Of a stretch of DNA of 64,000 nt, positions 14,186 to 46,965 are shown in pieces. The stretch comes from Candidatus Hydrogenedentota bacterium. Its GTDB lineage: Bacteria; Hydrogenedentota; Hydrogenedentia; Hydrogenedentales; SLHB01. Location of the stretch: contig JAKPDK010000167.1 in NCBI GenBank assembly GCA_029552745.1, forward strand, positions 7,622 through 71,621, read 5' to 3'. Each line of letters begins with the position of its first letter. Position 1 is the first letter of the stretch. The position numbers and the translations under genes were made by a program. The notes beneath the pieces are model-generated. The model worked only from the letters and a program-made list of their open reading frames with translations, had not been told where the DNA came from and ran no database searches.

Positions 14186-15495
14186 CGCTTGTCATTGCGA
14201 CGAGCGGCGTCAGGCACGACGTGGCAATCCCCTTGGGATTTCGGGGATTAGCATGCCCTAGGTCCTCTTGCGCTACGTCTCCCACGTTGTCATTGCGAGG
14301 AGTGCCGCAGGCACGACGTGGCAATCCCCTCGGGATTTCGGGGATTAGCATGCCCTGGGTCCTCTTGCGCTACGTCTCCTCCGTTGTCATTGCGAGGAGC
14401 CCCGCAGGGGCGACGCGGCAATCCCCTCGGGATTTCGGGGATTAGCATGCCCTGGGTTCTCTTGCGCTGCGTCTCTGGCGCTGTCATTGCGAGGAGTGCC
14501 GGTAGACACGACGCGGCAATCCCCTCGGGAGTTCGGGGATGACCACGCCCTGGGTTCCCGTGCGCTACGCGGTTGAGGGGATTGCTTCGTCGCTTCGAAG
14601 ACTCGCTCCTCGCAATGACACCGCGGGGGACATCAAACCCAACAAGATTCATTGAAACCCCTCCCTGCCGTCCCTTGTAGGGGCGAGCCCCCGTGCTCGC
14701 CCTCCCTTGTGCCTGCGCAGAACTACGTTTTCCGAGCATCCCATGTTTTTCCCCGTAGGGGCAAAATTGGTTGGGCAACCACGGGGGTTGCCCCTACACA
14801 TGTTCAGAATAGCCTTATTTTGTCCATTCCGTCCACCTCTCCTTGCGAGAAGTGCCGTTAGGCACGACGTGGCAATCCCCTTAGGAATTCGGGGATGACC
14901 ATGCCCTGGGTTCTCTTGCGCTACGCGGTTGAGGGGATTGCTTCGTCGCTTCGGGGACTCGCTCCTCGCAATGACACGGCGGGGGACAATAAACCCAACC
15001 GGATAGGGTGAAACCACTCCCTGCCATCCCTTGTAGGGGCGAGCCCCTGTGCTCGCCCTGCCAGTCCCTGCCCAAAACTACCTTCTTCGCGCATTCCACG
15101 TTTCCCCCGTAGGGGCGAGATTGGTTGGGCAACCACAGGGGGTTGCCCCTACTCATGTTCAGAATAACCTTATTTCGTCCATTCCGTCCACCTCTTCTTG
15201 CGAGGAGTGCCGGTAGGCACGACGTGGCAATCCCCTTGGGATTTCGGAATGACCATGCCCGGGGTTCTCTTGCGCTACGCGGTTGAGGGGATTGCTTCGT
15301 CGCTTCGAAGACTCGCTCCTCGCAATGACAACCACAAATGCCGGCGTAAGACGGGCAAGGCATGCCTCGGCCGTACAACGAAGGATGGGGACATTAGGCG
15401 CAACGCGTTGCGCCCTATCTTAAGCCCGGCGGTTGTCCCCATGATCCCCGAGGAGATTGCCGCGTCGTACCTGGCGGCAGTCCTCGGAATGACGG
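14186..15495. repeat. complex tandem array of the palindromic MITE-like element: about four tandem 97-bp units (14190-14490), then 2.5 copies of a ~360-bp composite unit, plus a degenerate terminal copy
   Basis: The unit 'gttgtcattgcgaggagtgccgcaggcacgacgtggcaatcccctcgggatttcggggattagcatgccctgggtcctcttgcgctacgtctcc' is repeated head-to-tail. Further right, the inverted partner 'gaggggattgcttcgtcgcttcgaagactcgctcctcgcaatgaca' recurs at ~14570, ~14930 and ~15280, with internal palindromes 'tgtaggggcgagcccccgtgctcgccc' and 'ggttgggcaaccacgggggttgcccctac'. There are no unique spacers. Confidence 0.85.
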
Positions 15496-15678: not shown

Positions 15679-18600
15679 ATGAGCAGGATATCTCTTGTGG
15701 TGGCGCAGCTCTTGAAAACGAAAACTCGGACGGGACGCGCGATAGCATTGGGCATGGTTGCGCTAACAGTTTGCGCGGTTTCGGTTTCTCAGGAGGCGAC
15801 ACCGACGTCCAGCATCGTGATCACTACAGACGGCGCTAATCCGGTGCCGTCGTCGTATATCCTGATGGTGGGCAGCAGCCAAGATTTTGCGGTGTTGCGC
15901 GTATTTGCTGATGGGACGAGACAAGCGGCAAGCCCGGGAGAAATCCAATGGACGTTTAGCGCCCCGAATCTTGTGGAAGTCTCTGTTGACGCAGTCTCTG
16001 GTTTTGCAGTGGTGACTGCCGTCCGTGAAGGAGAAGGAGTCTTGCGTGCTACAGATGATAGCGGTGCGGTAACGGAGGTGCGGCTATGCATGCGTACCCG
16101 TGGAGGCTCAGGGCAAGCCGCGACATCGGGCGCTTTGCTCGGGCTACGGGTCCCCTCGGACAATGCCCGAATTTTCTATCAGCAGGCCTCGTCAGGGGTG
16201 CCTCTCACGGTACTTGCCGCGAACGAAGGGCCTGTTGCGTTTGACCGTTTGCAATTCACCCTGGATGGATTTCAATTGGGTGTGGCACAGGAAGCCCCAT
16301 ATGCCGTAACCCATCGCGATGTTACCGTTCTACCAACATGGCAGCACCACCGAGTTTCTGTAAAAGGATTTCTCGCAAGTTCTGATGGACAACCTCTCGA
16401 AAGGACTTTGTCTTTCTTCACGGTGCCGATAGATGCGGACAAAAATGGCGATGGCTTGCCCGACGACTTGTTAAGCCTGGGGATGGCTCCAGGTGACTTG
16501 TGGGTAGCACGTACGGGGAAATCTAGACCAAACACCTTAAATGGTAACGAGGCGGCAGTTGCGTCAGGGTCAGTAGTCATTGCTGCCCTTCCCGTAGGAA
16601 TAAACCCCGGTGCATCTGTCGTCATACAAGACCCGGACAATCCGAAACGTACGACCGTGGTAACCGTGGCGCCGGGCTTGCTGCAATCAAACGAGATAGG
16701 TTTCCTAATCGTGGTAGTAAGTGATGAACTGGACGGGATCGTCGAGAGCGCGCCCACCTTGCCGAGCCACGAACTCACCCCCCAAGGGGCTTTTGTTTTT
16801 GCTTCGGTCATAGCTAGTCGGGATGGCGGAAAAACGTTTTTTAACCTTGACAAAGATCGCCTCGCAGACGGAGCGGTGCGGATAGACATGTACGGGGTAG
16901 CCGTCGTCCCCGATGAAAATGCCAGGTTCTTAATGTATCCCGCCGCAGTGGGTAACGCCGAAGGTACGGCGGAAGCGGGACTTAGACTGTCCGTTTCCCA
17001 TGACGGGACATGGTCGGACTCTTCCAGAGGGTCCCAGATTCGCACAGGCGTCATTTCCACATGGATGACAGCGCCGGGGATCTATGCCCCCTTCGTCACG
17101 CCGTCGCAAATACAGATTTTGGGTGTTTGGAATGCTGATACCGGCACCCCCTCGGGTTATTGCATTGGGGGCGACACGGTCATGCTGCGGCTGGCAAACG
17201 CACCTCGAGATGTGATTCCATCGGTAGCATTTGATGGGATCTCCGCGCCCCACGTGGAACAGGTGAGCGGTACCCCCGACCTTTTCATGGTGACTTCGCC
17301 GCGGGCTCCCCGTTCGGAAGCTCCTGTTACTGCTAGAAAAGTCGACGTTCAGGTTTCGCTTCTTGAAGACCCAGATAACCGAGACACGTTGGCGGATGGG
17401 TTCACGTTCGTTGGCCCTGAGATAGACACCATCCGTCCCAACACGGGACCCCAAAACGGCGGTACGACCGTTTGGCTATGGGGACACGGATTTGATAAGC
17501 AGGGGATGGCCGCACGAATTGGAACGTCGGTGCTGGTGCAAATCTCCGACGTAACCCCCACCCTGTTCCGGGGTGTTACAACGCCGGGGGAAGCAGCGAT
17601 AGCCGATGTGGTTGTGCGAACTTCCAATGGCTATCTTGGAATATTGCGAAACGGTTATACCTACACACAAGATGAGGCCTCCATTGACAACGGTGTGACG
17701 CTGAATGCTCCTTCGTCCAATCCTGCAACGTCTTCCGAAACCTCGCCGCGTGTTGTGCGAATAGAACCGGCTACCGCGTGGTCCTATGGCGGGTGCGTGG
17801 TACGGTTGTCTGGAAGTGGCTTTGTGCCAGATGCGACACGTGGCACGCGCGTCTTCATCGGGGGGCAAGAAGCTTCCTATGCGCCGCCTGCCGCCGGCAC
17901 GACTCCATCCACCACAGACCTGTATGTAATTGCCCCGGGGCTTCCATCTGATGTGGAACCCGATTTCGACCGAGTGAAGGTTGCTGTTGCGGTGGTAAAT
18001 CCCGATGGTACTCAAACGGCCTATCCGGCGTGCTTTACCTATGTGCGCAACGAAAAACGTCTTCAAACCACGCCCGCACAAGATGATACCCCAGCGTGTA
18101 CCGATATGGTTCATTCTTGGACTTTCTCGTTCGATTCGCGAACGGGATCGGGCACCTGCGCCTTTCCCATAACCGATGGGCTTGTCCCGGATACACTTTA
18201 TGTCGATATTCCCCCGTTGCCTGATGCGTGGAAAGGGACGGTGTTTGCCCTCATTCGGGCGACCCGAGAGTACCGGTTACTGGGTTTGGAAAACATTGCT
18301 GCGGGCGAGTCAATAGAGGGTTGCTGGGCAGTAGATGTCCATTTGTATCGAGGCGAATATCCGTTTGACGAATTGAAACCCCAGTTTGATCTGCACACAG
18401 ATTCTCTGGTGATTGATTTCCCCACCACCGACAAGATGGGACAACCCCTTCTATTTGCGGGTGACATCCAGAGCGGCGGCACGGCAGTCTATCGCCTGGA
18501 CACGAGCCTTTCGTCTTGGGACTATTTCAATGCCGATTGGGGGTATGTGGTAGACGGGGATACCGCCGGCGTTTACCAATGGAATGTCGGCGCCGGCGAC

Positions 18601-19482
18601 ACCGCACCCGCAATAGCGCGTTCTGGCAATCCGGAACTCCCCGTGGAACGTGTTCGATTTAAGGCAGACCGCACCGGTTCGTTCATGCTAAGAAAATGCG
18701 CGTTCATTCCGGATGAACTCCTAAAAGCCACCTCCTATGCCATTGCCGAAGACAGTCCGAAAAGCGGCCCCTATGGCGGTGGTACGGAAATCCGCATCGT
18801 GGGACGCGGGTTGGCATGGCCGAATCGCATTCGGTTTGGCGAAGTCACCGCGTATTTACCGGGAACCTCACTGGAAGGGCGACTGCTTTATGCGGACGAC
18901 ACGGAGATCCGCGTATTGTCACCTGCGGTGACCCCCCGCGATGGTAGTCTGACGGTAGATATTGGCATTGATTTACCCCAAGGGTTAGACAAGGCGGAGC
19001 GCGAAGTGGTGTTACAGAAACAGTACACGCTCCAAAACCTGGGTCCATTGGCAACAATCCTCGCCGCGTTGGTTGCGGTGCCCGTTGCGCTCATCGGGCT
19101 GTTTGCCGGTGGCAAGAGCGGCGGTGGCGGTGGCGGACCTTGCTTCATTGCGACAGCGGCGTATGGCACGCCCCTGGCGGAACAAATTGATGTGCTCCGC
19201 GCCGTTCGAGATCACTTCCTCTTGACAAATGCATTCGGTACGGCGATAGTTGACGTTTATTATCGGGTGAGTCCGGCACTTGCAGACGTGATCGCGGCAC
19301 ACCCATTGTTGGCGGGCGTGGTCCGATTGTTGCTCTGGCCGGTGGTTTGGGTTTCTCGCGCGGCACTCGCAATGCCTGGTGTCATATGGCCATCGTTCGC
19401 TTTACTGACTACCCTGGCGCTTTATCCTTTCCGAAGGAAAAGGTCTAGACGCAACACGCTTCGTGTGCATCAAGAAAAATAA
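15679..19482 (+). CDS. giant secreted surface protein with IPT/TIG domains and a conserved C-terminal 'CFIATAAYG' anchor-like domain
   Basis: 1267 aa with an N-terminal signal peptide. IPT/TIG-type segments include 'IRPNTGPQNGGTTVWLWGHGF', 'IEPATAWSYGGCVVRLSGSGF' and 'GPYGGGTEIRIVGRGL'. The C-terminus reads 'GGGGGGPCFIATAAYGTPLAEQIDVLRAVRDHFLLTN...', followed by a hydrophobic stretch and the basic tail 'FRRKRSRRN'. Confidence 0.7.
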   Translation: MSRISLVVAQLLKTKTRTGRAIALGMVALTVCAVSVSQEATPTSSIVITTDGANPVPSSYILMVGSSQDFAVLRVFADGTRQAASPGEIQWTFSAPNLVEVSVDAVSGFAVVTAVREGEGVLRATDDSGAVTEVRLCMRTRGGSGQAATSGALLGLRVPSDNARIFYQQASSGVPLTVLAANEGPVAFDRLQFTLDGFQLGVAQEAPYAVTHRDVTVLPTWQHHRVSVKGFLASSDGQPLERTLSFFTVPIDADKNGDGLPDDLLSLGMAPGDLWVARTGKSRPNTLNGNEAAVASGSVVIAALPVGINPGASVVIQDPDNPKRTTVVTVAPGLLQSNEIGFLIVVVSDELDGIVESAPTLPSHELTPQGAFVFASVIASRDGGKTFFNLDKDRLADGAVRIDMYGVAVVPDENARFLMYPAAVGNAEGTAEAGLRLSVSHDGTWSDSSRGSQIRTGVISTWMTAPGIYAPFVTPSQIQILGVWNADTGTPSGYCIGGDTVMLRLANAPRDVIPSVAFDGISAPHVEQVSGTPDLFMVTSPRAPRSEAPVTARKVDVQVSLLEDPDNRDTLADGFTFVGPEIDTIRPNTGPQNGGTTVWLWGHGFDKQGMAARIGTSVLVQISDVTPTLFRGVTTPGEAAIADVVVRTSNGYLGILRNGYTYTQDEASIDNGVTLNAPSSNPATSSETSPRVVRIEPATAWSYGGCVVRLSGSGFVPDATRGTRVFIGGQEASYAPPAAGTTPSTTDLYVIAPGLPSDVEPDFDRVKVAVAVVNPDGTQTAYPACFTYVRNEKRLQTTPAQDDTPACTDMVHSWTFSFDSRTGSGTCAFPITDGLVPDTLYVDIPPLPDAWKGTVFALIRATREYRLLGLENIAAGESIEGCWAVDVHLYRGEYPFDELKPQFDLHTDSLVIDFPTTDKMGQPLLFAGDIQSGGTAVYRLDTSLSSWDYFNADWGYVVDGDTAGVYQWNVGAGDTAPAIARSGNPELPVERVRFKADRTGSFMLRKCAFIPDELLKATSYAIAEDSPKSGPYGGGTEIRIVGRGLAWPNRIRFGEVTAYLPGTSLEGRLLYADDTEIRVLSPAVTPRDGSLTVDIGIDLPQGLDKAEREVVLQKQYTLQNLGPLATILAALVAVPVALIGLFAGGKSGGGGGGPCFIATAAYGTPLAEQIDVLRAVRDHFLLTNAFGTAIVDVYYRVSPALADVIAAHPLLAGVVRLLLWPVVWVSRAALAMPGVIWPSFALLTTLALYPFRRKRSRRNTLRVHQEK

Positions 19483-20035: not shown

Positions 20036-20375
20036 CATGGGGAACGCGAACATACAGACGACTTAACCGAATCTCTTCCATGCTTGCTTGGTCACAGGCG
20101 TCTCCATCCACGACGCCCACGCAGGATATCCGGTCGTCTTTAACCCTCGTGCATCTGTGGTTGCTTCAATTTTGACTCTGGCAATACTTCATACCAAACT
20201 GAACCTAGAACAACAATTTTGTCCCATCACATAGGGCTACCGCATGGGTACTTATGTGTCTACTTTCACACGCACGCCGTGCGCCTGGCTTATGGCAAAC
20301 CAACAACTCGCCCCGGAACTTGGCTTTCCAAGAATGGACACCGTATGTATAATGGACGTAGGAAAGGAAAATACA

Positions 20376-20666
20376 GTGAATTCAAGCGTTGACATTGTGC
20401 GGCAACTCGCCTTAATACGCGCGCAACTGAACGAACGGTTTACAGTTACCCGAATCGGTGTTTTCGGTTCCTGCGTCAGAGACGAAGACGCGCCTACAAG
20501 CGACGTGGATATTCTTGTCGATCTGGCAGAACCTACGTTTGATCATTACATGGACCTCAAGTTCCTGTTGGAAGATCTGTTGCAACGACCTGTTGACCTG
20601 GTTCTTGCAGATGCGTTGAAACCACGCATTAAACCTGTCATCGAGCGGGAAGTCATCTATGTCTAG
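20376..20666 (+). CDS. nucleotidyltransferase-domain antitoxin (MNT/MntA-like)
   Basis: 'RIGVFGSCVRDEDAPTSDVDILVDL' is the minimal nucleotidyltransferase (GS...DxD) motif. The likely start is GTG at 20376, with AGGAAAGGA 7 nt upstream; in-frame ATGs at 20334 and 20352 are alternatives. The stop overlaps the hepT start by 8 nt. Confidence 0.75.
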   Translation: MNSSVDIVRQLALIRAQLNERFTVTRIGVFGSCVRDEDAPTSDVDILVDLAEPTFDHYMDLKFLLEDLLQRPVDLVLADALKPRIKPVIEREVIYV

Positions 20667-21003
20667 GGAACCTGGTTTGTATCTGGACGATATGGTGGAG
20701 GCAATCGCCCGAATACGGGAATATACGGCTGCGATGAAATACGATATGTTCGCGCAAGATAGAAGGACTCAGGATGCGGTGATACGTAATCTTGAGATTA
20801 TCGGCGCAGCCGCAGCACGCCTGCCCGACGACTTGAGAAACTGTGCGCCTGAGATCGAATGGCGAAAAATTATCGCATTGCGAAACGTGCTTGCTCATGA
20901 GTATTTTGGAATCAGTCTGCCCATGATTTGGGACGTGGTGCAGAACAAACTGGCAAGTCTCGAAACAGCTTGCGGCAGGCTGTCAGACAAGCAAGAGAAA
21001 TGA
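20659..21003 (+). CDS. HepT-like (DUF86) HEPN toxin
   Basis: 114 aa. DUF86/HepT signature 'IRNLEIIGAAAARLPDDL...WRKIIALRNVLAHEYFGI', i.e. the Rx4HxY HEPN motif 'RNVLAHEY'. Confidence 0.8.
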   Translation: MSREPGLYLDDMVEAIARIREYTAAMKYDMFAQDRRTQDAVIRNLEIIGAAAARLPDDLRNCAPEIEWRKIIALRNVLAHEYFGISLPMIWDVVQNKLASLETACGRLSDKQEK

Positions 21004-21490: not shown

Positions 21491-21533
21491 TACGAAGCAA
21501 AGAAAGAGGGTGGGTGAAAATCACCCACCCTCT
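21491..21533 (-). terminator. rho-independent terminator downstream of the DUF1559 pilin-like gene
   Basis: Perfect 13-bp stem 'agagggtgggtga/tcacccaccctct' with an AAA loop. On the minus strand it is followed by TTCTTTGCTT, about 45 nt after the stop at 21580. Confidence 0.55.
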
Positions 21534-21579
21534 CTGTTCATTCGCCGCAATGTGCAACGCCTTTCAGTCTTCGGCGCTA

Positions 21580-22548
<969 letters not shown>

Positions 22549-22921
22549 GGTGTCTTCTCCTTTTCCTCTTGTACGCCTTGCACGAAGGCTGTCCACAAAT
22601 TGCAGGGCGCCACTCGCCCCACAGCGAGGAATACAATAAACACGGTGCGTTAGAAAATAATGAGAAAATAGATAGGATATGATGAAGCGCTCTTGTCGTT
22701 GTCACTGCACCCCACGGAGTAAGCTTGGGATCGGCCAGCGTGGATGTACTTTATGCCCCCGTCCCGCCTGCCCATTTGGTCACGGGACATGTGCTACGCT
22801 TGCAAGGTCCTGTCGAAGTTCAGGGAACTAGAATCTAAAGAGGAACCTTTCCGAAGGTCTTCCGCAAGCTGCTGGTCGCGTAGCCCCCGTCTTTGCCGGG
22901 ACGGTTGTTGTTTCTTTGAAG

Positions 22922-23407
22922 TTACTTTCTTGTCCCCTTGGCGAACTCTTGTTCTGCATCCGAGATCAGTTTCAAAGCCGAAGCGGCATTCTGCACGTGG
23001 ATGAGTTTTTCTCGGAAATCCGCGTTTTCCATGAGATGTGCAATACCGGCAAGCGTCCTGACATGTCCCGGGTAGTTGTCCTTGGGGGTAATCAACAAGA
23101 TGATGATTCGGGCAGGCTTGCCGTCGAGGCAATTGAACGGTATCCCCTTGCGCGATATCCCCAGGGCACCGATCATGTCGCTAATCCGGTCAGACGCGCC
23201 GTGAGGGATCGCTATACCGAACTCCATCCCGTGACTCATCGCCCTTTCATGTCCTGCCACCACCTCGATCAAGTGACTCCGGTAAGACATCGGGACTTCA
23301 TGGGCTTCGATTAAAACATCGATTAGTTCCGTGATGGCTTCGAAACGATCTTCCGCCTCAAGGTTCACTTTTATCACGTCTTCGTGCAACACTTCACTTA
23401 ATAACAC
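22922..23407 (-). CDS. ptsN: PTS EIIA type-2 protein, PtsN/EIIA(Ntr)-like regulatory protein
   Basis: 161 aa. The PTS_EIIA_2 pattern has its phosphorylatable His in 'GIAIPHGASD'. The N-terminal 'VIKVNLEAEDRFEAITELIDVL' is typical of PtsN. The start overlaps the atpD stop by 10 nt. Confidence 0.7.
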   Translation of the reverse strand: MLLSEVLHEDVIKVNLEAEDRFEAITELIDVLIEAHEVPMSYRSHLIEVVAGHERAMSHGMEFGIAIPHGASDRISDMIGALGISRKGIPFNCLDGKPARIIILLITPKDNYPGHVRTLAGIAHLMENADFREKLIHVQNAASALKLISDAEQEFAKGTRK

Positions 23408-24099
23408 GTTTCGTTTCCTTCTGAACGTTCCTCGTCACGTATCCCGTCCCACCTCGCGGGCTCGGCGCGACGCCGCTGTTTCTTCTTCTTGATCCGCTTC
23501 AATCGAAACATTTCTTCCCGTTCGCGTTCTTCCAAGGCACGTGCAATCTGCACGGATTCCGCACGCAACTGGGGAATAAGGTGTTCCTGCAAGGCATTGA
23601 TACGCCGACTCACCTTTTGAATCTCGTTGCCCAGCAATTGCAAATTGCGCTCTCGCGGTGCACACGCCAACAGAACTTCCAGCATGCGTTCCGCAGCCTC
23701 GGCGGTTTCCCAGATATGAGAGGACGTCGCGAGACGTCCCAACCCGAGGTCGTCGGGAGTTCGCACGATCTCCCGACCTTCCACATCAGCCAGTGGAATG
23801 CCCCAAACGTTCTTGGTTTTTACCTGGACGTCGATCTCGCGTTGCAAGGCTGTCGCGGCGGACCGCAGCTCGTCCGTGCCGCGCATGGCGCGTGCCAAAA
23901 CAAGGGCGATGGTTGCGGCTCTGCCTCGGATGTGCAGTTCTCGCCGCATGTCGCGATACTCTCTTGCTCGAGTGAGCAATTCTTGTAACAAGGCGTGACG
24001 TTTCCCTTCCAGCAACGTGGCACCTTCCTGTGCCAGGCGAATTTGGGCGCGTCGGGTGAGCAACGCCATCCGTGTGGGACTTGCACTTTCGCCCGTCAT
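23398..24099 (-). CDS. atpD: V/A-type ATP synthase subunit D
   Basis: 233 aa coiled-coil protein. 'PTRMALLTRRAQIRLAQEGATLLEGKRHALLQELL' matches the V-ATPase D-subunit N-terminus. It lies downstream of atpB. Confidence 0.8.
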   Translation of the reverse strand: MTGESASPTRMALLTRRAQIRLAQEGATLLEGKRHALLQELLTRAREYRDMRRELHIRGRAATIALVLARAMRGTDELRSAATALQREIDVQVKTKNVWGIPLADVEGREIVRTPDDLGLGRLATSSHIWETAEAAERMLEVLLACAPRERNLQLLGNEIQKVSRRINALQEHLIPQLRAESVQIARALEEREREEMFRLKRIKKKKQRRRAEPARWDGIRDEERSEGNETCY

Positions 24100-24115
24100 G
24101 ACATCCTACCTCGCA

Positions 24116-25564
24116 TCACAAACTTTGCTCTTTCAGGAACGGGGAGCGCACGCCGTCCTCCATGATTTCGCAATAATACCGATCTATCAGGTCTTTATTG
24201 ATCCGCGTGAGTTCCTCTTTAGGAATGAGGGATAAAAGCCGCCACCCGAGGTCCAGGGTTTCTTCAATGGTGCGACGGGACTCTCCTTGATGAATCATCT
24301 GTTGTTCAAAGGCGCGTGCAAACGCCAGATACTTTCGGTCTAACTCGCCCAACGCCTCTTCCCCCACAATGCTCATCAACCGGCGGATATCTCGCCCATG
24401 GGCATAGGAGGCGTACAGTTGATTTGCCAATTGTCGATGGTCGGCACGCGTCCGCCCCTCTCCGATACCGTTGTTCATTAGCCTTGAAAGACATGGAAGG
24501 ATGTCCACGGGAGGAAAAACCCCTTGCCGGTGCAATCCTCGGGAAAGGACGATCTGTCCTTCGGTGATATACCCTGTGAGATCAGGGATGGGGTGCGTCA
24601 TGTCGTCATCCGGCATAGTCAAGATGGGCACTTGGGTTACAGAACCCTTTTTCCCCCGAATACGACCTGCCCGTTCATATATCGTGGACAAATCTGTGTA
24701 CATATAACCGGGGTAACCTCGCCGTCCGGGAATCTCCTCGCGCGCGCTTGAGATCTGCCGCAGCGCATCGCAGTAGTTCGTCATATCGGTCAAAATCACC
24801 AAAACATGGTACCCCAACTCGAACGCGAGATATTCCGCCGCAGTAAGAGCGCAGCGCGGTGCAAAAAGACGCTCAATCGCTGGGTCGTTCGCTTTATTGA
24901 TGAAAGCGACTACACGATTACCTCTGCCGCCGCTGTCAAACGATTTCAAGAAAAACGCCGCTTCCCGTTCTGTCAGCCCCATTGCGCCGAATACAACTAC
25001 GAACTCTTCGGTATCGTTTTTCGTGCCGGCTTGCTGAACGATTAAGGCGGCAACTTCGTTGGCGGGAAGGCCCGCGCCAGCAAATATGGGCAATTTTTGC
25101 CCGCGCACGAGGGTATTCATCCCATCGATTGCGGAAATGCCGGTTTCGATAAAGTCGCTGGGTTTGTCACGCGAAACCGGATTGATAGCCGCCCCCATGA
25201 TGTCGACTTCGGCGTCCGGAACGGGTGCAGGCATGCCGTCGATAGGTGCGCCGACACCGTTGAACCGTCTGCCCAGAATGCCGCGCGAAACGCCGAGGCG
25301 GGCGGCTTCTTTCTGGAGCGATACCGTCGTCGTCTTTACATCCAGACCCTGTGTACCCTCTAACACCTGGACAACCGCATGATGTTGCGAGACCTCGAGT
25401 ACCTGTCCGTGCCGCACCACACCGTCAGCTGTTTGCAATTCCAAAATTGCACCGGTCGGAAAACGGCTGCCTGTACGCAAAAAAACCAGGGGACCAGAGA
25501 TGTATTGAACATCCCAATACTCGCGTTCGAGCAGGTCCGATGATTGTATGGAAGGATTGGTCAT
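24116..25564 (-). CDS. atpB: V/A-type ATP synthase subunit B
   Basis: 482 aa, non-catalytic alpha/beta-family subunit, including '[23 protein letters not shown]'. It sits immediately downstream of subunit A. Confidence 0.9.
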
Positions 25565-27358
25565 CTATTCGCTCCTCTGTGTCACTAAATTGGAGAATTG
25601 GTGTTCTAGACGCTTCATTACCTCCGCACGAGCTTCCTCGAATTTTTCCCGGGATACATCTCTCAAACGGGCGATATCTTCTCGAAGGGGAAGTCGCAGA
25701 ATGTCAGACAACACCATCCCTTTTTCCAACGCTTCTCGAGCCGCTTGGTAAAAGGCAAGTACGGCTTCCAACAGCCCGGAGGTCTTTGGGAGCGAACTGT
25801 AGGCATCCGCATCGGAAAAGGCATTTTGTTGCAAAAAGACTTCCCGTACCAGACGCGCGGTTTCCAAGACCAGCCGCTGGGCATCCTGAAGCGCATCCGG
25901 ACCCACCAACTGCACCACCTCCTGGAGCTCGGCATCGCGCTGAAGCAATTCAACAAGCGCCCGGCGACGCTCCGTCCACCCCGCCGGCGCGTGCGTCGAA
26001 AACCACTCTTCCAACTCTTTCAGATAAAGGGTATAACTTCGGTTCCAATTGACAGCCGGGTAGTGACGCCGATAAGCGAGTGTTGCGTCTAATGCCCACA
26101 AGGCGCCTGCCACTCGCAACGACGTTTGAGTGACAGGCTCGGAGTAATCCCCGCCAGCGGGCGATACCGCTCCGACGATGGTAAGAGAGCCACACCGGGG
26201 CGGTTCGCCTTCGCGCACGGTTTCGAGACACTCCACCCGACCGCTACGTTCATAAAATGCGGCAATCCTTGCCGCCAAATAGGTGGGATACCCCTCTTCG
26301 CCGGGCATTTCTTCCAGTCGCGAAGCGATTTCGCGAAGGGCTTCTGCCCAACGGGATGTGGAATCGGCCATAAGAGCAACATCGTAGCCTTGATCTCGAT
26401 AATACTCCGCGATGGCAACCCCGGTGTAGACCGACGCGTCACGCGCTGCGACCGGCATATTCGAGGTATTCACCACCAAAATAGTCCGGTCCATGAGAGG
26501 ACCACCGGTCTTTGGATCTTTGAGGTGAGGAAACTCGTCCAAAACATCTGCCATCTCGTTCCCGCGTTCGCCACATCCGATATAGACGATGATATCGGCG
26601 TTACAGTACTTTGCAAGTGTCTGCTCCACGACGGTTTTACCGGTGCCGAATCCGCCGGGTACAATCGCCGTGCCCCCCAGAGCGATAGGGAAAAGACAAT
26701 CCAAAACGCGCTGTCCCGTGAGAAAGGGACGATCAACAGGAAGTTTCTTTAAGATGGGACGCGGCTCTTTGATAGGCCAAACCTGCAGCATGCGTAACTC
26801 GACCCCGCCATCTAAAACGGCGATGACGTCATCAACCCCGTACTCTCCTTTTGGAGCTATTTCACGGACGACACCCTTGACCTTGGGCGGCACCAAAATA
26901 CGGTGCACAAAATGTTTCTCTGGAACCGTACCCAATATGTCGCCGCCAGTTACCTCTTGCCCATTCTGAGCTGTCGGCGTGAACAGCCATCGGCTCGACC
27001 GGTCAAGCGCGGGCGCCGTCAGTCCTCGCGAGATAAAATCTCCGGATTGTTTCTGTAAACTCGACAAGGGACGCTGAATTCCATCGAACGTTCCACCGAG
27101 CAAACCCGGTCCCAGTTCGACCGACAGAGGGGTGCCTGTGGGTACCACCGGTTCGCCCAAAAACATGCCCTGGGTGTCTTCGAAAACTTGAGCGTCAACG
27201 GTATCGCCGTCAATGCGGATGACTTCGCCGAGCAGACCGGCTTTCCCGACCCGCAGCACTTCGCCCATTGCGACACCGTGCATACCGGAAGCGGAAATCA
27301 TGGAGCCGGCAATCCGCACAATCTTACCGATACATTCTGTTCTCGTTGGTAACGTCAT
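25565..27358 (-). CDS. atpA: V/A-type ATP synthase catalytic subunit A
   Basis: P-loop 'PGGFGTGKTVV' and 'IVYIGCGERGNEMADVL' within the V-type A-subunit architecture. Start chosen at the Met 8 nt after the atpF stop. Confidence 0.9.
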   Translation of the reverse strand: MTLPTRTECIGKIVRIAGSMISASGMHGVAMGEVLRVGKAGLLGEVIRIDGDTVDAQVFEDTQGMFLGEPVVPTGTPLSVELGPGLLGGTFDGIQRPLSSLQKQSGDFISRGLTAPALDRSSRWLFTPTAQNGQEVTGGDILGTVPEKHFVHRILVPPKVKGVVREIAPKGEYGVDDVIAVLDGGVELRMLQVWPIKEPRPILKKLPVDRPFLTGQRVLDCLFPIALGGTAIVPGGFGTGKTVVEQTLAKYCNADIIVYIGCGERGNEMADVLDEFPHLKDPKTGGPLMDRTILVVNTSNMPVAARDASVYTGVAIAEYYRDQGYDVALMADSTSRWAEALREIASRLEEMPGEEGYPTYLAARIAAFYERSGRVECLETVREGEPPRCGSLTIVGAVSPAGGDYSEPVTQTSLRVAGALWALDATLAYRRHYPAVNWNRSYTLYLKELEEWFSTHAPAGWTERRRALVELLQRDAELQEVVQLVGPDALQDAQRLVLETARLVREVFLQQNAFSDADAYSSLPKTSGLLEAVLAFYQAAREALEKGMVLSDILRLPLREDIARLRDVSREKFEEARAEVMKRLEHQFSNLVTQRSE

Positions 27359-27365
27359 GAAACGC

Positions 27366-27692
27366 TTACTCCAAACGTATTTCGTAACCAATTGCAGGTT
27401 TTAACAATTCCGCCAAAAGAGCGTCCACGTCGCTCTCATCGGTCTCAAAAGATGGACAGAACAGGATCAACGGCAGCCCTCGGTGTTCTCGGATCCGTTT
27501 GTGAATCCGCTCTGGAAATCTCTCGCGCAAAGTTTCATCAACAAGGATTATTTGAGCGGCATCTAGCCCGTCCAAGTAACGGAGGAGGATCTGTATTGCT
27601 TCGTCAGCATCGGTAACGTCGATAACAGGAACACCGGCAAGACGCAGTTGCAGTCCAACTTCCGAGTTAGCCAGAGCAATCACACTATGCAT
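27366..27692 (-). CDS. atpF: V/A-type ATP synthase subunit F
   Basis: About 109 aa. 'MHSVIALANSEVGLQLRLAGV' is F-subunit-like. Positioned between C and A, as in the Thermus operon. Confidence 0.65.
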   Translation of the reverse strand: MHSVIALANSEVGLQLRLAGVPVIDVTDADEAIQILLRYLDGLDAAQIILVDETLRERFPERIHKRIREHRGLPLILFCPSFETDESDVDALLAELLKPAIGYEIRLE

Positions 27693-28785
27693 AGAGCAGC
27701 TCTTCTTGAATACGTCCGACGGGTAGCCCAGCGGCACGACCTCGAACGATCATTCTCAGATTTAAGATTTCGTTAAACTTCAGCCAGCAATAATGCATCA
27801 AAACGGCAAACCCCGTACCGTCGGCACGTGCGGTTTTCTTAAGGTCTGCGATAATGAGTCCGTGGAGTATCCTCTCCAAAGTTGAAAACCGACCGCTTTG
27901 AACAAATTGGTATAAACCGTCAATCAACGCATGGTAAGGAGTCGGCGCCAGCAACTCCAGCGCAGTTGCCACATCCTGCGTCCATGCCAAGCGTCGTAGT
28001 CGTGTCCCGTCTATCGTCCCGCACGGGAGAAGCCTTCGCTGTAACCCGCGACAGTGCGTGTCGTAAACCACTCCCTCCGGAAGACGTTGTTCGTAGCGCC
28101 GTTTTTCTCGTAGCAAGGTACGCAAATTGATCAAGTCAATGTACATGCTCAACATCCGAGCAAATTGCTGATCGGACGGATCGGAAGACGATCGGAAGCG
28201 CTCTGCGAGTCGAACGTAATAGGCGTGATCGAGTGCTTCTTCGAGTGCCGCCAATTTTTCCGTATCGCGGTACTCGCGAAACGCAGAAAGCAGCGGCGAA
28301 CATATTTCCGGCGCCCACGCCACCAGCTGACCAATCAGACGCTCCATAGTCGGTTCTTTCGACAAACGATCAAATTGTTCGGGCGACAGATTTGCGCCAA
28401 TGGGGGTAAAGACTTCCTCGGCAGAAGCGGAAGGGCGATGTCGCCTTCGGATAAGCGCCTTCACCGCTACCAAATCCCAGTGCATGAGAAACAGCGATGT
28501 GCGTCGCTCCAGGTGCCCTTTTGTGAGACGAAGAAGATGACGGAAGGTGCGTGACAGATTGCGTGACAAGGCATCTTCTACTGCGTCCACGCTCGAGAAT
28601 CTCGTCAGGCTTTCCGCCATCTCTTGGGCATACGGTGACTGCAGCAGGAGGTCTATGATCAGCCGGATATCGGACTGAGCGAGACAATCTTCCAACCGTT
28701 CCCGCGAAAACAGACGGCTCTTCATCCCGCGGACACGAGCGCTTACATGAGTATTTTGATATTGGGCTTCTGCGGATTGGAGCAT
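27685..28785 (-). CDS. atpC: V/A-type ATP synthase subunit C (V0 d-subunit homolog)
   Basis: About 366 aa, alpha-helical. Position between E and F. Confidence 0.65.
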   Translation of the reverse strand: MLQSAEAQYQNTHVSARVRGMKSRLFSRERLEDCLAQSDIRLIIDLLLQSPYAQEMAESLTRFSSVDAVEDALSRNLSRTFRHLLRLTKGHLERRTSLFLMHWDLVAVKALIRRRHRPSASAEEVFTPIGANLSPEQFDRLSKEPTMERLIGQLVAWAPEICSPLLSAFREYRDTEKLAALEEALDHAYYVRLAERFRSSSDPSDQQFARMLSMYIDLINLRTLLREKRRYEQRLPEGVVYDTHCRGLQRRLLPCGTIDGTRLRRLAWTQDVATALELLAPTPYHALIDGLYQFVQSGRFSTLERILHGLIIADLKKTARADGTGFAVLMHYCWLKFNEILNLRMIVRGRAAGLPVGRIQEELLYA

Positions 28786-28792
28786 GTTGGGC

Positions 28793-29377
28793 TCACATTC
28801 CAAACAGGCGCTCACGGCACAGTTTGCGCAATTCGGGTTCCATCCGTCGCAGACGTCCTCGAAGGGTGTTGCGAACCCTCACTGTATGCGTACGGTCCAT
28901 CGCCGCCACCCCGTCCCAAAGGTCCGGGTCTTTCTCCACCGAGATGTCAGGGCGTCCCTTGCTTGAAAGCCACGACCGACAACACGCCGCGTATTGGGGC
29001 GCGGTATACACCACAGCGCATTCTGGAAATGCCGCAAGGGTCTCGGTCAAGAGTGCCACAACGGTGTTTTCAAAATCCGCACGCTTTGTCAACGCCTCCA
29101 GTTCGCCGCGAAGCCGTGACAAAATCTCCTCGATCACCCCATGCTGGAAGGTCTCAAGAAGACGAGCGGCTTCCCAAGCCGCATGTTCCGTCGACTCCGC
29201 CATTCGCGCTGCTTCCTCGCGTTCGATTTTCTTGAGGGCGGTAAGTCGACGTTCTTCAGCGGTGCGTTCCGCCTCTGCCAAAATGCGGCTTATTTGCCGT
29301 TCCGCCTCACGCTTTTCCTGCTGGCAAAGTGCCTCGATCTCGGCAGCCATGCTATCTTTTAGAACAGCTTTTCCCAT
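28793..29377 (-). CDS. atpE: V/A-type ATP synthase subunit E
   Basis: 194 aa. The N-terminal half is a long charged coiled coil (EAERQISRILAEAERTAEERR...). Position between K and C. Confidence 0.6.
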   Translation of the reverse strand: MGKAVLKDSMAAEIEALCQQEKREAERQISRILAEAERTAEERRLTALKKIEREEAARMAESTEHAAWEAARLLETFQHGVIEEILSRLRGELEALTKRADFENTVVALLTETLAAFPECAVVYTAPQYAACCRSWLSSKGRPDISVEKDPDLWDGVAAMDRTHTVRVRNTLRGRLRRMEPELRKLCRERLFGM

Positions 29378-29385
29378 AAGAGGAC

Positions 29386-29745
29386 TTAGATTTGACGAAT
29401 AAGTAAGAACGCGATTACGAAGCCCAAAACCACGATTGTCTCGGGCAGAGCGAACAACACCAGGATGTTGGTGAATAATTCCGGTTTCTCTGCCAGAGCG
29501 CCCGTGCCGCCCGAGCCCACCGCCGATTGGGCTTTTGCGGTGGCAAACCCCGCAACCGCCATCGTAATAGCCGCGGCAAGCGCCAAACCGGCAACCCGCA
29601 ATGCTTCACCTACGCTGATGTCTTCCCGAGACGTAGCGGTTTCGTTAGACTCCGCCGCAAGAACCGGCACCGTCTCCCAAACATTCCACGCCAACGCCCC
29701 ACAAAGGACCACGTAACTCCAAAAAACCCATTTCTTTCTCGTCAC
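29386..29745 (-). CDS. atpK: V/A-type ATP synthase proteolipid subunit K (c-ring)
   Basis: 'GLALAAAITMAVAGFATAKAQSAVGSGGTGALAEKPELFTNILVLFALPETIVVLGFVIAFLL' is the c-subunit hairpin with a conserved Glu. A ~45-aa N-terminal extension carries a hydrophobic segment. Confidence 0.75.
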   Translation of the reverse strand: MTRKKWVFWSYVVLCGALAWNVWETVPVLAAESNETATSREDISVGEALRVAGLALAAAITMAVAGFATAKAQSAVGSGGTGALAEKPELFTNILVLFALPETIVVLGFVIAFLLIRQI

Positions 29746-31661
29746 AAGGCAGCCTCCTTTCTAAACGGTATGTAGTATTTCCCTTCTGGTTTATAGAACT
29801 TAGGTAGAGATTCCACATAGTTTAACCGTAACGAATGTAGCACAGGACTAAAAACGCCTATTCCTACGTTCACCAAATGAACCACAAGCGCCAAAGGAAT
29901 TCCCACCCAGAAAGTGGGCGCCTCCTCGCCCAATAAATTCGCTATTTCGGCAAGGACAGCGGACGCAATACCCAGCGCCATGAGTCGGGCATACGAAAGC
30001 ACATTGCCTATTAGAGAAACAATCTCCAACAGGTGGACCGCCGCCATGGCTCCCGCCGCTTTAAACAAAACTCCCGCAGCGGCAAGGAACAAGATCACCG
30101 CCATACCACCCAGTATGCCGATAGGCAATTCGGTAAGAAGCCCCACCGTTCCGGCAACGACCGCTCCCAATCCCAGAAGCAGCCCCGTTTTTTCCAACGC
30201 GTGACGCCGATGCCGTTGGCGAAAATCTTCAACAATACCGAGGACAAGACTGAGCGGCACGTGAATGAGACCAAAAAGAATCCCCCACGCTAACAACAAG
30301 TGGGCGTGGTGACCTCGATGAAACCATACAGGACCAAGACCGAACCACTCTTCGCCCAAAGTGCCCCCATATTCCCCAAAGAGAACGCCAAAGACGGCGC
30401 CAGATATCCCCATATACATCCCGACCGTACCAGCATTCTTAATTGCAGATAAATGCCTAAAACGCGAGCGGAGCGCCCACGCCGCAACTATCACCGCCAA
30501 ACCATACAGCACATCGCCCAAAATAAACCCATAAAACAACAAAAAGGTGATAGCAACGATGGGCGTCGGATCAAGGGTGCCATATGCCGGTGGTTTGAAA
30601 AGCGACAAAAGCACCTCAAACGGCTGGAACAACCGATGATTCTTCAACAAGGTCGGGATTTCTGCCGGGCTGATCCCCTGCAAGGACAAGTCTGACAAAA
30701 CAGCGCGACCACCAAACCGGCGCTCCATAGCGGTCTCTAAATCTGCAATTCTTTCGGTGGGCATCCACCCGTGAATCACCGCAAGAAGACGGCTTTGCGC
30801 AAAACGTTTCATAGCTTCAAACCGCGCTATTCGGTTTTGCACGACAAGGCGAACCGCATGAATCGTGGCGCCATTTTGCTCTGCGAAAGTGGCTGTTTCG
30901 CGTCGGACGTTTTCCAGCATCCTCCGTGACTCGGCAATCTCCGCGTCTAAGCGAGCCATAACGGCGTCCAGTTTGCCGCTGGGATATTTTTTGTGCGGCA
31001 TATCCAGACGTATAATGCCTTCCTCCTCTAGCAACTGCTCCACCTGATCGTTAAAGGCAACCGGATAAACAATCAAGCCCGCCATTACAGTTCGACTGAC
31101 TTTTCGAAGCAGTACATCGCATTCGGGACCGAACAGTGCCGCACAGTGACGTTCCAAATGGTCCACGGCGTCGCGGGGGGCATTTTGTAAGATGATGGCA
31201 CGCGCGCTTTTGCCCAATTCCACATCGCGCCCCCTCACCAGAGGCGCCACCCATTCCATCGCACGGCGGAATTGACTTAGCAACTCGATATTCTCCGCCA
31301 AACTTAAACGTTGCCTCGTCAAGTGCCGCAGCTGTCTTGTCCAAGCCCGAATCTGGGGACTTAATTCTTCCAAAGACGTCCGTTCCAACTCCTCCACGAG
31401 TCGAAGCACATGCGGCCTTACCGGCGTATACGACAACAACGGCATGATTTCATTTAAGGTCATCTGAAGATTGGTGAGGAGTTCGAATTCATCTTTTTGG
31501 GCTTCCGTCAAATGTACCCGATGAAGGAAACCCGACACACCCTCAACGACCAACGGAACTTCCTCTAAATGCAAATGCCCGTCGCTCTGGATGAACTCCA
31601 CCATTTCATCCAGCTCACGACGCAAACATACAATCTCGACTCGACTCATCCGGGCAATCAT
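29742..31661 (-). CDS. atpI: V/A-type ATP synthase subunit I (V0 a-subunit homolog)
   Basis: 639 aa. An N-terminal cytoplasmic coiled-coil domain is followed by a C-terminal ~8-TM domain. It has 4-nt overlaps with both neighbours. Confidence 0.8.
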   Translation of the reverse strand: MIARMSRVEIVCLRRELDEMVEFIQSDGHLHLEEVPLVVEGVSGFLHRVHLTEAQKDEFELLTNLQMTLNEIMPLLSYTPVRPHVLRLVEELERTSLEELSPQIRAWTRQLRHLTRQRLSLAENIELLSQFRRAMEWVAPLVRGRDVELGKSARAIILQNAPRDAVDHLERHCAALFGPECDVLLRKVSRTVMAGLIVYPVAFNDQVEQLLEEEGIIRLDMPHKKYPSGKLDAVMARLDAEIAESRRMLENVRRETATFAEQNGATIHAVRLVVQNRIARFEAMKRFAQSRLLAVIHGWMPTERIADLETAMERRFGGRAVLSDLSLQGISPAEIPTLLKNHRLFQPFEVLLSLFKPPAYGTLDPTPIVAITFLLFYGFILGDVLYGLAVIVAAWALRSRFRHLSAIKNAGTVGMYMGISGAVFGVLFGEYGGTLGEEWFGLGPVWFHRGHHAHLLLAWGILFGLIHVPLSLVLGIVEDFRQRHRRHALEKTGLLLGLGAVVAGTVGLLTELPIGILGGMAVILFLAAAGVLFKAAGAMAAVHLLEIVSLIGNVLSYARLMALGIASAVLAEIANLLGEEAPTFWVGIPLALVVHLVNVGIGVFSPVLHSLRLNYVESLPKFYKPEGKYYIPFRKEAAL

Positions 31662-32002
31662 ATAGCACCGTTTGTCTGATCATTGGGCAATAACAAAGAC
31701 AAGGCTTCCTGGATGAAGTCCGGTATTTGAGACTCTAATTCCGCGCGAAGAACCGCCACCAGATGCTCCGCCTCGGCAAGGATGCGCCCCCTCTCTTCTT
31801 CCCGCTTTCTTCGCCCCTCGTCGCAGATGACGCGTATTTCTGCGGCGAGCCTCTGCTCGGCTGCCGATAATAACCCGGCAGCCTCTTTTTCCGCCCGCGC
31901 GATCCTCTCTTCCGCATCCCGGCGGCTCTCTTCCAAACGGGTAACAAGCTGTTGCTCCCACACCGCTAATTCCGACAACAAAGAGCGTTCCTCTCCCGTC
32001 AA
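31658..32002 (-). CDS. V/A-type ATP synthase subunit G/H-like small coiled-coil protein (first gene of operon)
   Basis: 114 aa, Glu/Arg/Ala-rich helix. Its position 5' of atpI matches Thermus atpG. Assignment is by position and composition only. Confidence 0.45.
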   Translation of the reverse strand: MTGEERSLLSELAVWEQQLVTRLEESRRDAEERIARAEKEAAGLLSAAEQRLAAEIRVICDEGRRKREEERGRILAEAEHLVAVLRAELESQIPDFIQEALSLLLPNDQTNGAI

Positions 32003-32254
32003 CCTGGCCTCCCACTCAACACCTTAAAAGCTACCTAGCAACCTATAAGATCTCCCGTTTGGCTCACCAAACGATCGATTTCCCTCGTTACATGCTGATT
32101 GTGCCGAAATAACACGCATGAGGTCAATTCCTGGTAACGCGTTTCTCCATCTCTGAAAACAACAAAAGATGCCCCATTTTCTATTTCCCCGCAGCGCTCC
32201 CACTTGCGCCCGCAAGTGACACAAAACAACCTCCTTTCGTACGTTGCTGCGTTC

Positions 32255-32445
32255 CACCACGCTTCTCCCCGCGAGTGCCGCCCGGGGACGAATCTTTTTA
32301 CCCAGAACCCTACGTTGTCATTGCGAGGAACCCCGCCATTCCCACACCTTTTTCTCGAACCCTACGTTGTCATTGCGAGGAGCCCCGAAGGGGCGACGTG
32401 GCAATCCCCTCAGGTATTCGAAAATGCCCCGGGACCCTGCCTTAT
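32255..32445. repeat. MITE-like palindromic element copy (two 'gttgtcattgcgagga' cores) in the V-ATPase operon upstream region
   Basis: 'ccctacgttgtcattgcgaggaaccccgcc...ccctacgttgtcattgcgaggagccccgaaggggcgacgtggcaatcccctcagg'. Confidence 0.7.
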
Positions 32446-32579
32446 GTCTTCGTGCGCCAAGCGCTGAGAAGGATTACTTCCTGACAGCGACGCACCCCCA
32501 CTGCTTGCAGCGGCAACAGGGGAGAAGCCAACTTTGAAAAGACATAGCCCTTCCGCGGGTGTAGAAAGTTATACGCGAC

Positions 32580-39439: not shown

Positions 39440-39745
39440 TCGTTGTCATTGCGAGAAATGGGTGTTCAACACGACGAAGCAATCTCCGCCTCTTTTTGTA
39501 GGGGCGAGACATGCCTCGCCCTTTCACGTCCTTGCCCGGGACGCGCCTCTTGTTGCCGATTGCCCAGCATTGTCATTGCGAGGAGCGAATCTTCGAAGCG
39601 ACGAAGCAATCCCCTCACCCGCGCAGCGGAACAGGACGTATTGCTTTACCGTGGCTATCCCCCAATTCTCGAGGGGATTGCCACGTCGCCCCTGCGGGGC
39701 TCCTCGCAATGACAACCTGGGGGACATAGCGCAAGCGGGTCTTGA
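39440..39745. repeat. MITE-like palindromic element, composite copy immediately upstream of the csm6-like/cas6-like cassette
   Basis: 'gttgtcattgcgagaaatgg...acgacgaagcaatctcc...gtaggggcgagacatgcctcgccc...cattgtcattgcgaggagcgaatcttcgaagcgacgaagcaatcccctc...gaggggattgccacgtcgcccctgcggggctcctcgcaatgacaacc'. Confidence 0.75.
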
Positions 39746-40004
39746 GGGAGACTGGGTTGGCCCCAAATTACCAAGGGCATTGCCAGGGCGTTTTTTCGGC
39801 ATCCCTCGCAAGAACAATGCTAAGGCCCCGACAAGAATCATATGGGCAAAGGACTTTCTGTTGTTGCGTTGAATCTCCTTAAGAAAGTGGCGCAACATAG
39901 TACCACTGTTTTGAACACAATCGTTCATATATGGGGCAAGGTAGATATGGGGTTTTGACGTATGGTGCTGTTCACCTTACGTGTCAGATTCGAGGAAACG
40001 CATC

Positions 40005-46454: not shown

Positions 46455-46965
46455 CCTCCCGGTTGTCATTGCGAGGAGCCCCGAAGGGGCGACGTGGCAA
46501 TCCCCTTAGGATTTTGGGGATGACCATGCCCTGGGTTCTCTTGCGCAGCGCGGTTGAGGGGATTGCTTCGTCGCGTCGGAGACTCCGCTCCTCGCAATGA
46601 CAACGCGGGGGACCTCAAACCCAACGGGCTAGGGTGAGACCCTTCCCTTCCATCCCCTGTAGGGGCGAGCCCCCGTGTTCGCCCTTCCCCGTCCACGGCA
46701 GAACTACCTTCACCGCCCATTCTTGGCCTTCCCTGTAGGTGCGAGGCATGCCTCGCACCCCGCCGTTACGCGATTCAGCCCCCCTTTGTCCCCCTGCACG
46801 CGGGGGGATGGAAGATTAAAACAGGCTGCAAACCTATTCGTATTCGTATCGCCTGTGGGTGCCAGGGGTCTAACATTGGGCAACCACGGGGGGTTGCCCC
46901 TACGATGTTCAGAATAACCCGTTTTGCCCATTGCCTCCGGGTGTCATTGCGGGCACCGTAGGGCA
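46455..46965. repeat. MITE-like composite element (~500 bp; same family as the 14.2-kb array)
   Basis: 'gttgtcattgcgaggagccccgaaggggcgacgtggcaatcccctta...ggttgaggggattgcttcgtcgcgtcggagactccgctcctcgcaatgaca...ctgtaggggcgagcccccgtgttcgccc...tgtaggtgcgaggcatgcctcgcacc...ggcaaccacggggggttgcccctacgatgttcagaataac'. Confidence 0.8.

Follow-up and report, generated by a model that had tools for sequence, protein, structure and literature searches.

A stand-alone PtsN-like EIIA gene closes V/A-type ATPase operons in Hydrogenedentota and several other bacterial phyla

We analysed a 64,000-nucleotide (nt) stretch of contig JAKPDK010000167.1 from an uncultured Candidatus Hydrogenedentota bacterium (assembly GCA_029552745.1), referred to below as the window, in which a stand-alone EIIA gene of the phosphotransferase system (PTS) is the last gene of a V/A-type ATPase operon. 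Ten co-directional genes run on the minus strand from 32002 to 22922 in the order G-I-K-E-C-F-A-B-D-EIIA, and the complete set of nine V/A-ATPase subunits scored above the Pfam cut-offs within this one cluster. The map was built from open reading frame (ORF) calls and Pfam assignments, which bear out the gene order given in an initial annotation of this DNA. The genes and sites discussed here are the following.

32098..32127, minus strand: promoter-like site TTGACC-18-CACAAT, about 95 nt 5’ of the subunit G gene (consensus scan, weak)
31658..32002, minus strand: subunit G, peripheral stalk (V-ATPase_G_2, PF16999, E=9.5e-9)
29742..31661, minus strand: subunit I, a-type stator and ion channel (V_ATPase_I, PF01496, E=1.8e-20)
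29386..29745, minus strand: subunit K, single-hairpin c-ring proteolipid with a Q...LPET motif (ATP-synt_C, PF00137)
28793..29377, minus strand: subunit E (vATP-synt_E, PF01991)
27685..28815, minus strand: subunit C (d/AC39), possible true start ATG at 28785 (vATP-synt_AC39, PF01992, E=5e-59)
27366..27737, minus strand: subunit F, possible true start ATG at 27692 (ATP-synt_F, PF01990)
25565..27391, minus strand: catalytic subunit A (PF00006, PF16886, PF22919)
24116..25564, minus strand: subunit B (PF00006, PF22919)
23398..24099, minus strand: subunit D, central rotor stalk (ATP-synt_D, PF01813, 135 bits)
23398..23407, minus strand: overlap of the atpD stop and the EIIA start, 10 nt (read from the sequence)
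22922..23407, minus strand: EIIA, stand-alone, PtsN-like, 161 amino acids (aa), GTG start, last gene of the operon (PTS_EIIA_2, PF00359)
23249..23251, minus strand: His53 codon of EIIA, at a conserved Arg position (column statistics)
23240-23242 and 23231-23233, minus strand: codons of EIIA residues 56 and 59 which, like residue 53, are replaced conserved positions
23201..23203, minus strand: His69 codon of EIIA, predicted phospho-acceptor in GIAIPHG (alignment)

The G/I and I/K junctions are 4-nt overlaps, the gaps between K and E, A and B, and B and D are 8, 0 and 16 nt, and the E/C, C/F and F/A junctions are overlaps or gaps of less than 10 nt depending on the start codon chosen. The 4-nt overlaps and short gaps first described for the operon were thus confirmed, every junction being an overlap or a gap of at most 16 nt. 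The description of EIIA as fused to the operon holds in that the gene is appended to its 3’ end, but this is not a protein fusion. Subunit D scored 124.5 against TIGR00309 (cut-off 72.25). Subunit B is 74-78% identical to its counterparts in Hydrogenedentota metagenome-assembled genomes (MAGs), and the ATPase and EIIA are both closest to Hydrogenedentota MAGs. Upstream of the operon, the promoter-like site is weak evidence for a promoter, as the consensus scan found fewer such sites overall than in shuffled sequence. At gathering scores no Rfam family matched anywhere in the window, and within 21500-32700 even the limit of E<=1 gave nothing; no riboswitch or leader RNA is evident at the V-ATPase operon.

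At the last junction, TAA, the stop codon of atpD, spans 23398-23400, and EIIA starts with the GTG at 23405-23407, in agreement with the 10-nt overlap reported in the initial annotation. JGI, calling genes independently on a 99%-identical contig, arrived at identical models for both genes with the same 10-nt overlap. An AGGA Shine-Dalgarno-like motif lies 9-12 nt 5’ of the GTG, which in 34/34 genome loci where the gene is linked to a V-ATPase falls on residue 1 (ATG or GTG) of the aligned homologue; M1 and L3 of the protein are conserved. Because the two genes overlap, no terminator can lie between them, and by the consensus scan D itself contains no minus-strand promoter-like site. No convincing intrinsic terminator was found on the minus strand 3’ of EIIA. 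A GC-rich hairpin at 22887-22904, 18-35 nt past the EIIA stop, has a T-rich tail on the plus strand only, and its minus-strand RNA folds no better than shuffled sequence (z=0.6). This hairpin resembles a plus-strand terminator, yet no convincing plus-strand gene ends there.

The EIIA protein matched PF00359 with 88.2 bits (cut-off 27, E=6.6e-25), its residues 6-150 covering profile positions 2-143 of 144. An AlphaFold2 model of the protein (pLDDT 91.8, pTM 0.88) gave 74 Foldseek matches in the Protein Data Bank (PDB) at E<=0.001, the top hits being named IIA-Ntr, IIA-Mtl and IIA-Fru; the six best fold matches were all IIA-Ntr (TM 0.80-0.90, rmsd 1.6-2.2 Å), ahead of IIA-Mtl and IIA-Fru. Foldseek also matched the cytoplasmic domains of AE2 and Band 3. 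By sequence, 4 of the best 5 PDB matches were IIA-Ntr/PtsN chains (2A0J, 3URR, 4GQX and 1A6J). The protein scored below the cut-offs of the PtsN equivalog models (45.3 vs 138.7 bits for TIGR01419 and 38.5 vs 221 bits for NF008145), its best NCBIfam score was to the fruA IIA subfamily-domain model TIGR00848 (71 bits, below the cut-off of 103.5), and NCBIfam held no model specific for this EIIA subfamily. Its neighbours are atpD upstream and a DUF1559 pseudopilin gene downstream, and the rpoN-hpf-ptsN-rapZ-npr context is absent, none of the roughly 40 window ORFs covered by the Pfam scan being related to it. The earlier designation of the gene as PtsN-type is thus favoured by the first rank of IIA-Ntr in both PDB sequence and fold comparisons, while the equivalog scores, the missing rpoN context and a His at an active-site Arg position count against it. 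We consider ‘PtsN-type’ a reasonable label, and by sequence and modelled structure the protein belongs to a known fold and family, of which it is a new representative.

His69, the predicted phospho-acceptor, was invariant in 23/23 sequences and in every clade, and the GIAIPHG motif around it aligns with the IPHG motif of Neisseria meningitidis IIA-Ntr (2A0J) and with AIPHG of 3URR. His115 and the HVRTLAGIA helix are nearly invariant in the family. Residue 53, which by alignment corresponds to the R57 position of Escherichia coli PtsN (the R49 position of IIA-Mtl), is Arg in 97% of the operon-linked homologues and His in the window’s EIIA.

We scanned species-representative genomes with a profile made from 11 closer EIIA sequences, which gave 80 loci, and located the ATPase genes in these by tblastn with the window’s subunits. 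EIIA followed D in 34 of the 80, either as the full I-K-E-C-F-A-B-D-EIIA or as the part of it visible on short contigs. Lineage labels of MAGs are as deposited and may be imprecise; those of the linked loci were Hydrogenedentota, Spirochaetota/Treponemataceae, Planctomycetota (Pirellulales, Phycisphaerales and Sedimentisphaerales), Chitinivibrionales, ‘Nitrospirales’ and the FCB group. The complete Phycisphaerales chromosome CP070806.1 is one carrier of the D-EIIA pair. Annotated contigs labelled KSB3 and Latescibacteria likewise show the linkage, and the homologues that were checked individually on annotated contigs were V-ATPase-linked in 8/8 cases. The arrangement is thus not unique to one genome, which the initial annotation had named as an outcome that would speak against its idea, and is conserved across several phyla. 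The D stop and the EIIA start lay -19 to +116 nt apart in the 34 linked loci (median 11), and 29 nt or less apart in 30 of them. Together with the 10-nt overlap in the window, these distances in 34 other species support the co-transcription and tight coupling of atpD and EIIA that had been proposed.

The reverse test started from D: metagenome contigs were scanned with a subunit-D profile, and EIIA lay directly 3’ of D in 30 of the 74 loci that had enough downstream sequence. EIIA was present in 14/14 loci where D was at least 50% identical to the window’s D, in 5/9 at 42-50% identity, in 11/34 at 38-42% and in 0/17 below 38%. The linkage rate falls with D identity; EIIA thus belongs stably to certain V-ATPase lineages and is missing from others. 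The gene 3’ of EIIA differs from one lineage to the next and in many cases is convergent; EIIA closes the conserved unit, and only the D-EIIA pair is kept.

In a neighbour-joining tree of the EIIAs, the operon-linked members form a largely coherent clade, and pairwise identity among the EIIAs correlates strongly with that among the B subunits (Mantel r=0.91, reached by 0 of 2000 permutations); EIIA has shared the history of the operon. A second architecture was also seen, in which a distant Treponema-type EIIA (37-38% identity) is the first gene of a V-ATPase cluster consisting of EIIA, a 102-aa protein, C, I, K and F, with 1-2 nt between the first genes. Two Spirochaetales loci (L027, 16471-19943, and L074, 16410-19957, minus strand) carry a second A/B-like ATPase gene pair, about 26-28% identical, 6-9 kb downstream of the V-ATPase operon; this pair may be an F-type or a flagellar/T3SS ATPase.

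Relatives of this EIIA stand beside other cation machines. Sister clades lie directly downstream of NhaA in 4 Planctomycetota loci (L057, L073, L078 and L079), directly after a CPA-type Na_H_Exchanger with CBS domains in 5 loci related to Poribacteria and Abyssobacteria (L016, L022, L023, L036 and L037), and directly after nuoI-J-K-L-M-N in 4 further Planctomycetota loci (L047, L052, L055 and L070), where L047 has a 4-nt overlap at the nuo/EIIA junction. EIIA is the terminal gene in each of these linkages, of which we found no description in the literature. In a Chitinivibrionales MAG (L043; 129-1430 and 10001-10456), two EIIA paralogues flank one V-ATPase operon, the first lying after a Na_H_Exchanger and just upstream of subunit I, the second after subunit D. 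In Hydrogenedentota-type loci, a gene for the Na+-dependent nucleoside transporter CNT (PF07662, PF01773) often lies 3’ of EIIA, within 12-800 nt (L001, L007, L017, L025, L031, L034 and L170); two of these loci, L007 and L031, have no upstream V-ATPase. Overall, an ion-translocating membrane system lies immediately upstream on the same strand in 47 of the 80 genome loci, the remainder being mostly Planctomycetota with a divergent secretin gene. These gene neighbourhoods favour a link with cation-translocating machines generally over one with K+ or nitrogen in particular.

EIIA-Ntr proteins have no sugar substrate and bind their partners according to phosphorylation state, and several of these partners handle cations, namely TrkA, KdpD and YcgO (PMC13104625). 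In E. coli, unphosphorylated PtsN inhibits the CPA1 K+/H+ antiporter YcgO, to whose cytoplasmic region it binds (PMC11808508). By analogy, the EIIA described here may be an accessory regulator of the V/A-ATPase that acts directly on the pump, a role that we propose with moderate confidence; that EIIA and the V-ATPase have a functional link of some kind is highly probable. EIIA would be made together with the Thermus-type V/A-ATPase from one transcript and co-translated with it. An unlinked HPr/NPr-EI relay, reporting the phosphoenolpyruvate (PEP) or energy state, would set the phosphorylation of His69, the state of His69 would decide whether EIIA binds the cytoplasmic part of the ATPase (V1 or the stalk), and bound EIIA would change pumping or ATP hydrolysis. 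Our guess is that unphosphorylated EIIA would inhibit the pump, as PtsN does with YcgO and TrkA; we infer phosphorylation, ATPase binding and the direction of the effect from the behaviour of such relatives. The more specific suggestion of the initial annotation, direct regulation by carbon/nitrogen status, was not established and draws on the same analogy with proteobacterial PtsN. A wider reading is that the EIIA subfamily might be a dedicated, phosphorylation-switched regulatory subunit of the V/A-ATPase, the complex I membrane arm, NhaA and CPA exchangers, whose docking on V1 or the stalk would switch the pump by PEP/energy state. We regard this as possible but doubtful; if it is true, this rotary ATPase would be the first known to be under PTS control, and bacterial V/A-ATPases would gain a new principle of regulation.

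Several observations weigh against direct regulation of the pump by a phosphorylation-switched EIIA. Arg53, Ser56 and Thr59, present in about 95% of the homologues, are His, Ala and His in the window’s EIIA and in a 78%-identical homologue (P0003), in both of which H-E-R-A-M-S-H-G replaces R-E-R-S-M-S-T-G; His53, Ala56 and His59 could impair canonical phosphotransfer. About 60% of the sampled D loci have no EIIA gene, and the V-ATPase clearly works without it. Three loci inside the linked clade (L007, L031 and L038) have no V-ATPase within 7-10 kb upstream, the Mantel correlation would be equally expected for vertically co-inherited but unrelated genes, and no fusion of EIIA to an ATPase subunit was present among the 120 homologues listed (103-196 aa). 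The PTS partners whose search the initial annotation had suggested were also missing: tblastn found no HPr or NPr in the 64-kb window or in 170 loci (1.7 Mb of flanks), although a divergent HPr could escape such a search, and neither EI nor HprK was among the roughly 40 larger window ORFs scanned by Pfam. The tblastn queries were E. coli and Bacillus subtilis sequences. No EIIB/C, Trk or Kdp gene was present among the same 40 or so ORFs. With no HPr/NPr, EI or HprK nearby, the phospho-relay is therefore assumed from the literature on these phyla, which reports permease-free regulatory PTS proteins in Planctomycetes and Spirochaetes (PMC2405797, PMC13104625).

The conserved linkage could also mean something other than control of the pump. 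EIIA might be co-expressed with the ATPase and act elsewhere, on K+ systems (Trk/Ktr/Kdp/CPA) or Na+-coupled carriers, so tuning secondary ion fluxes; we consider this rather unlikely. The ntp operon of Enterococcus hirae, which ends with the KtrB-type K+ transporter gene ntpJ, offers a likeness for such a role. A TrkH gene about 5 kb downstream in L164 would fit it as well, and so would the CNT genes that often lie 3’ of EIIA in Hydrogenedentota, where the EIIA-CNT pair persists without the V-ATPase in the two loci named above. The known PtsN targets are all transporters or kinases of this kind (PMC13104625, PMC11808508). Yet no single alternative target gene is conserved beside EIIA across lineages: it is the ATPase that is kept as partner, in two architectures, and the sister-clade EIIAs always directly follow a transporter that they could plausibly control. 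It is improbable, in our estimate, that the EIIA fold serves here outside any PTS phosphorelay, as a constitutive structural or assembly subunit or as a ligand or ion sensor comparable to the Band 3/AE cytoplasmic domain. Such a use would accord with the lack of EI and HPr nearby, with the His at the active-site Arg position and with the Foldseek matches to AE2 and Band 3, but the phospho-His, H115, GIAxPHG and HVRTLAGIA are invariant or nearly so and Arg53 is kept in 97% of the linked homologues, which is the pattern expected from selection for phosphotransfer.

Linkage without function, in which a PtsN-like gene was captured once and then carried along by descent or by whole-operon transfer, would explain the many V-ATPase operons that have no EIIA, and the congruent histories of EIIA and subunit B are what a single capture with co-transfer predicts. 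We nevertheless judge it very unlikely: the catalytic motifs are intact across at least 6 phylum-level labels, all 14 of the closest relatives by D identity have the gene, and the 5’ arrangement of the Treponema-type clusters and the NhaA, CPA and Nuo linkages of the same EIIA family are independent of the 3’ one. That EIIA serves as the EIIA part of a sugar PTS permease of the fructose or mannitol type is hardly credible. The fruA IIA model gave the top NCBIfam score, and some sources name the homologues ‘fructose-specific IIA’, but that score is below the cut-off, IIA-Ntr ranks above the sugar IIAs in structure and PDB sequence matches, and no EIIB or EIIC is encoded among the window ORFs scanned or beside the homologues on annotated contigs. 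These phyla are moreover reported to be without sugar PTS permeases (PMC2405797, PMC13104625).

The K subunits of all the linked operons, examined for a Na+-specific signature, are single hairpins with a common Q...(I/L)PET..GF motif. Their Q...PET motif resembles that of the Thermus L subunit. Mulkidjanian et al. list the Thermus L subunit as H+ type (PMC2359735).

The EIIA shares with the proteobacterial EIIA-Ntr/PtsN proteins PF00359, the fold, an (I/x)PHG motif with a second His, and a stand-alone form without EIIB/C. The structures compared were 1A6J, 2A0J and 3URR/4GQX, those of E. coli, N. meningitidis and Burkholderia EIIA-Ntr, respectively. The window’s EIIA differs in being only 21-24% identical to these proteins and in not lying beside rpoN, hpf, rapZ or npr, and its gene shares an operon with the presumed target, while ptsN of Proteobacteria lies apart from the genes for its targets. 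To our knowledge, EIIA-Ntr targets have all been found singly, in Proteobacteria, and are encoded away from ptsN. The operon matches that of Thermus thermophilus (atpG-I-L-E-C-F-A-B-D) in its nine subunits and their order, in line with the ‘Thermus-like order’ of the initial annotation, and in the single-hairpin proteolipid with Q...PET. The difference is the tenth gene, EIIA, appended to the operon and overlapping atpD, and we know of no EIIA gene in the characterised V-ATPase operons of Thermus or Enterococcus. The E. hirae operon, ntpFIKECGABDHJ, has accessory genes after ntpD and thus a similar 3’ extension past subunit D by a cation-homeostasis gene, but its ntpJ encodes a membrane transporter, whereas EIIA is predicted to be a soluble PTS signalling protein, and the gene order differs.

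The closest functional parallel is E. coli PtsN-YcgO (PMC11808508), which the EIIA sister clades recall in being encoded directly after CPA-type and NhaA antiporters; there ptsN and the gene of its partner, a secondary antiporter, are unlinked, whereas here the partner would be a primary rotary ATPase. A full-text literature search, largely outside subscription journals, found no paper on a linkage of V-ATPase with EIIA, PtsN or the PTS, and the word ‘ATPase’ is absent from a 2026 PTS-Ntr review, so that we provisionally regard the linkage as undescribed. The place of EIIA in V-ATPase operons, like that of its relatives after NhaA, CPA and nuo genes, is a new variation on a known theme, the control of cation transport by PtsN.

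Regulation of bacterial V/A-ATPases is poorly understood, MgADP inhibition and subunit conformational changes being mainly what is known. Here gene context names a candidate target, as dozens of species encode a PtsN-like protein within a rotary-ATPase operon. If EIIA does bind the ATPase, several little-studied phyla (Hydrogenedentota, Spirochaetota, Planctomycetota, Fibrobacterota and relatives) would have their main ion pump tied to a PEP/energy signal, a physiological role would be found for their partial, permease-less PTS, and biochemistry and cryo-EM would have a defined protein pair to work on.

Other features of the window were noted in passing. An intergenic dispersed repeat with the core TCATTGCGAGGAG... 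has 21 matches in the window, where chance would give 0.28. Tandem arrays of the repeat, with periods of 97 nt and 356 nt, lie at 14189-15330, and it occurs also at 3816, 15476, 32318-32386, 39573-39712, 46466-46600, 53389-53702 and 56916; two copies lie within the leader region 5’ of the V-ATPase operon. A Csm6-type HEPN gene (462 aa) adjoins a Cas6-domain gene (318 aa) at 39981-42325 on the plus strand, and Tandem Repeats Finder detected no CRISPR-like array in the whole window. Downstream of the operon, at 20244-21003 on the plus strand, overlapping genes encode a toxin-antitoxin pair of an MNT nucleotidyltransferase and a HepT-like (HEPN) protein, which recurs on the 99%-identical JGI contig. 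At 15679-19482 on the plus strand, a few kb from EIIA, is the gene of a TIG/IPT-domain protein of about 1260 aa, which has a counterpart at 2296-6057 of L166, the contig of the 78%-identical relative; its presence near EIIA in both indicates local synteny beyond the operon.

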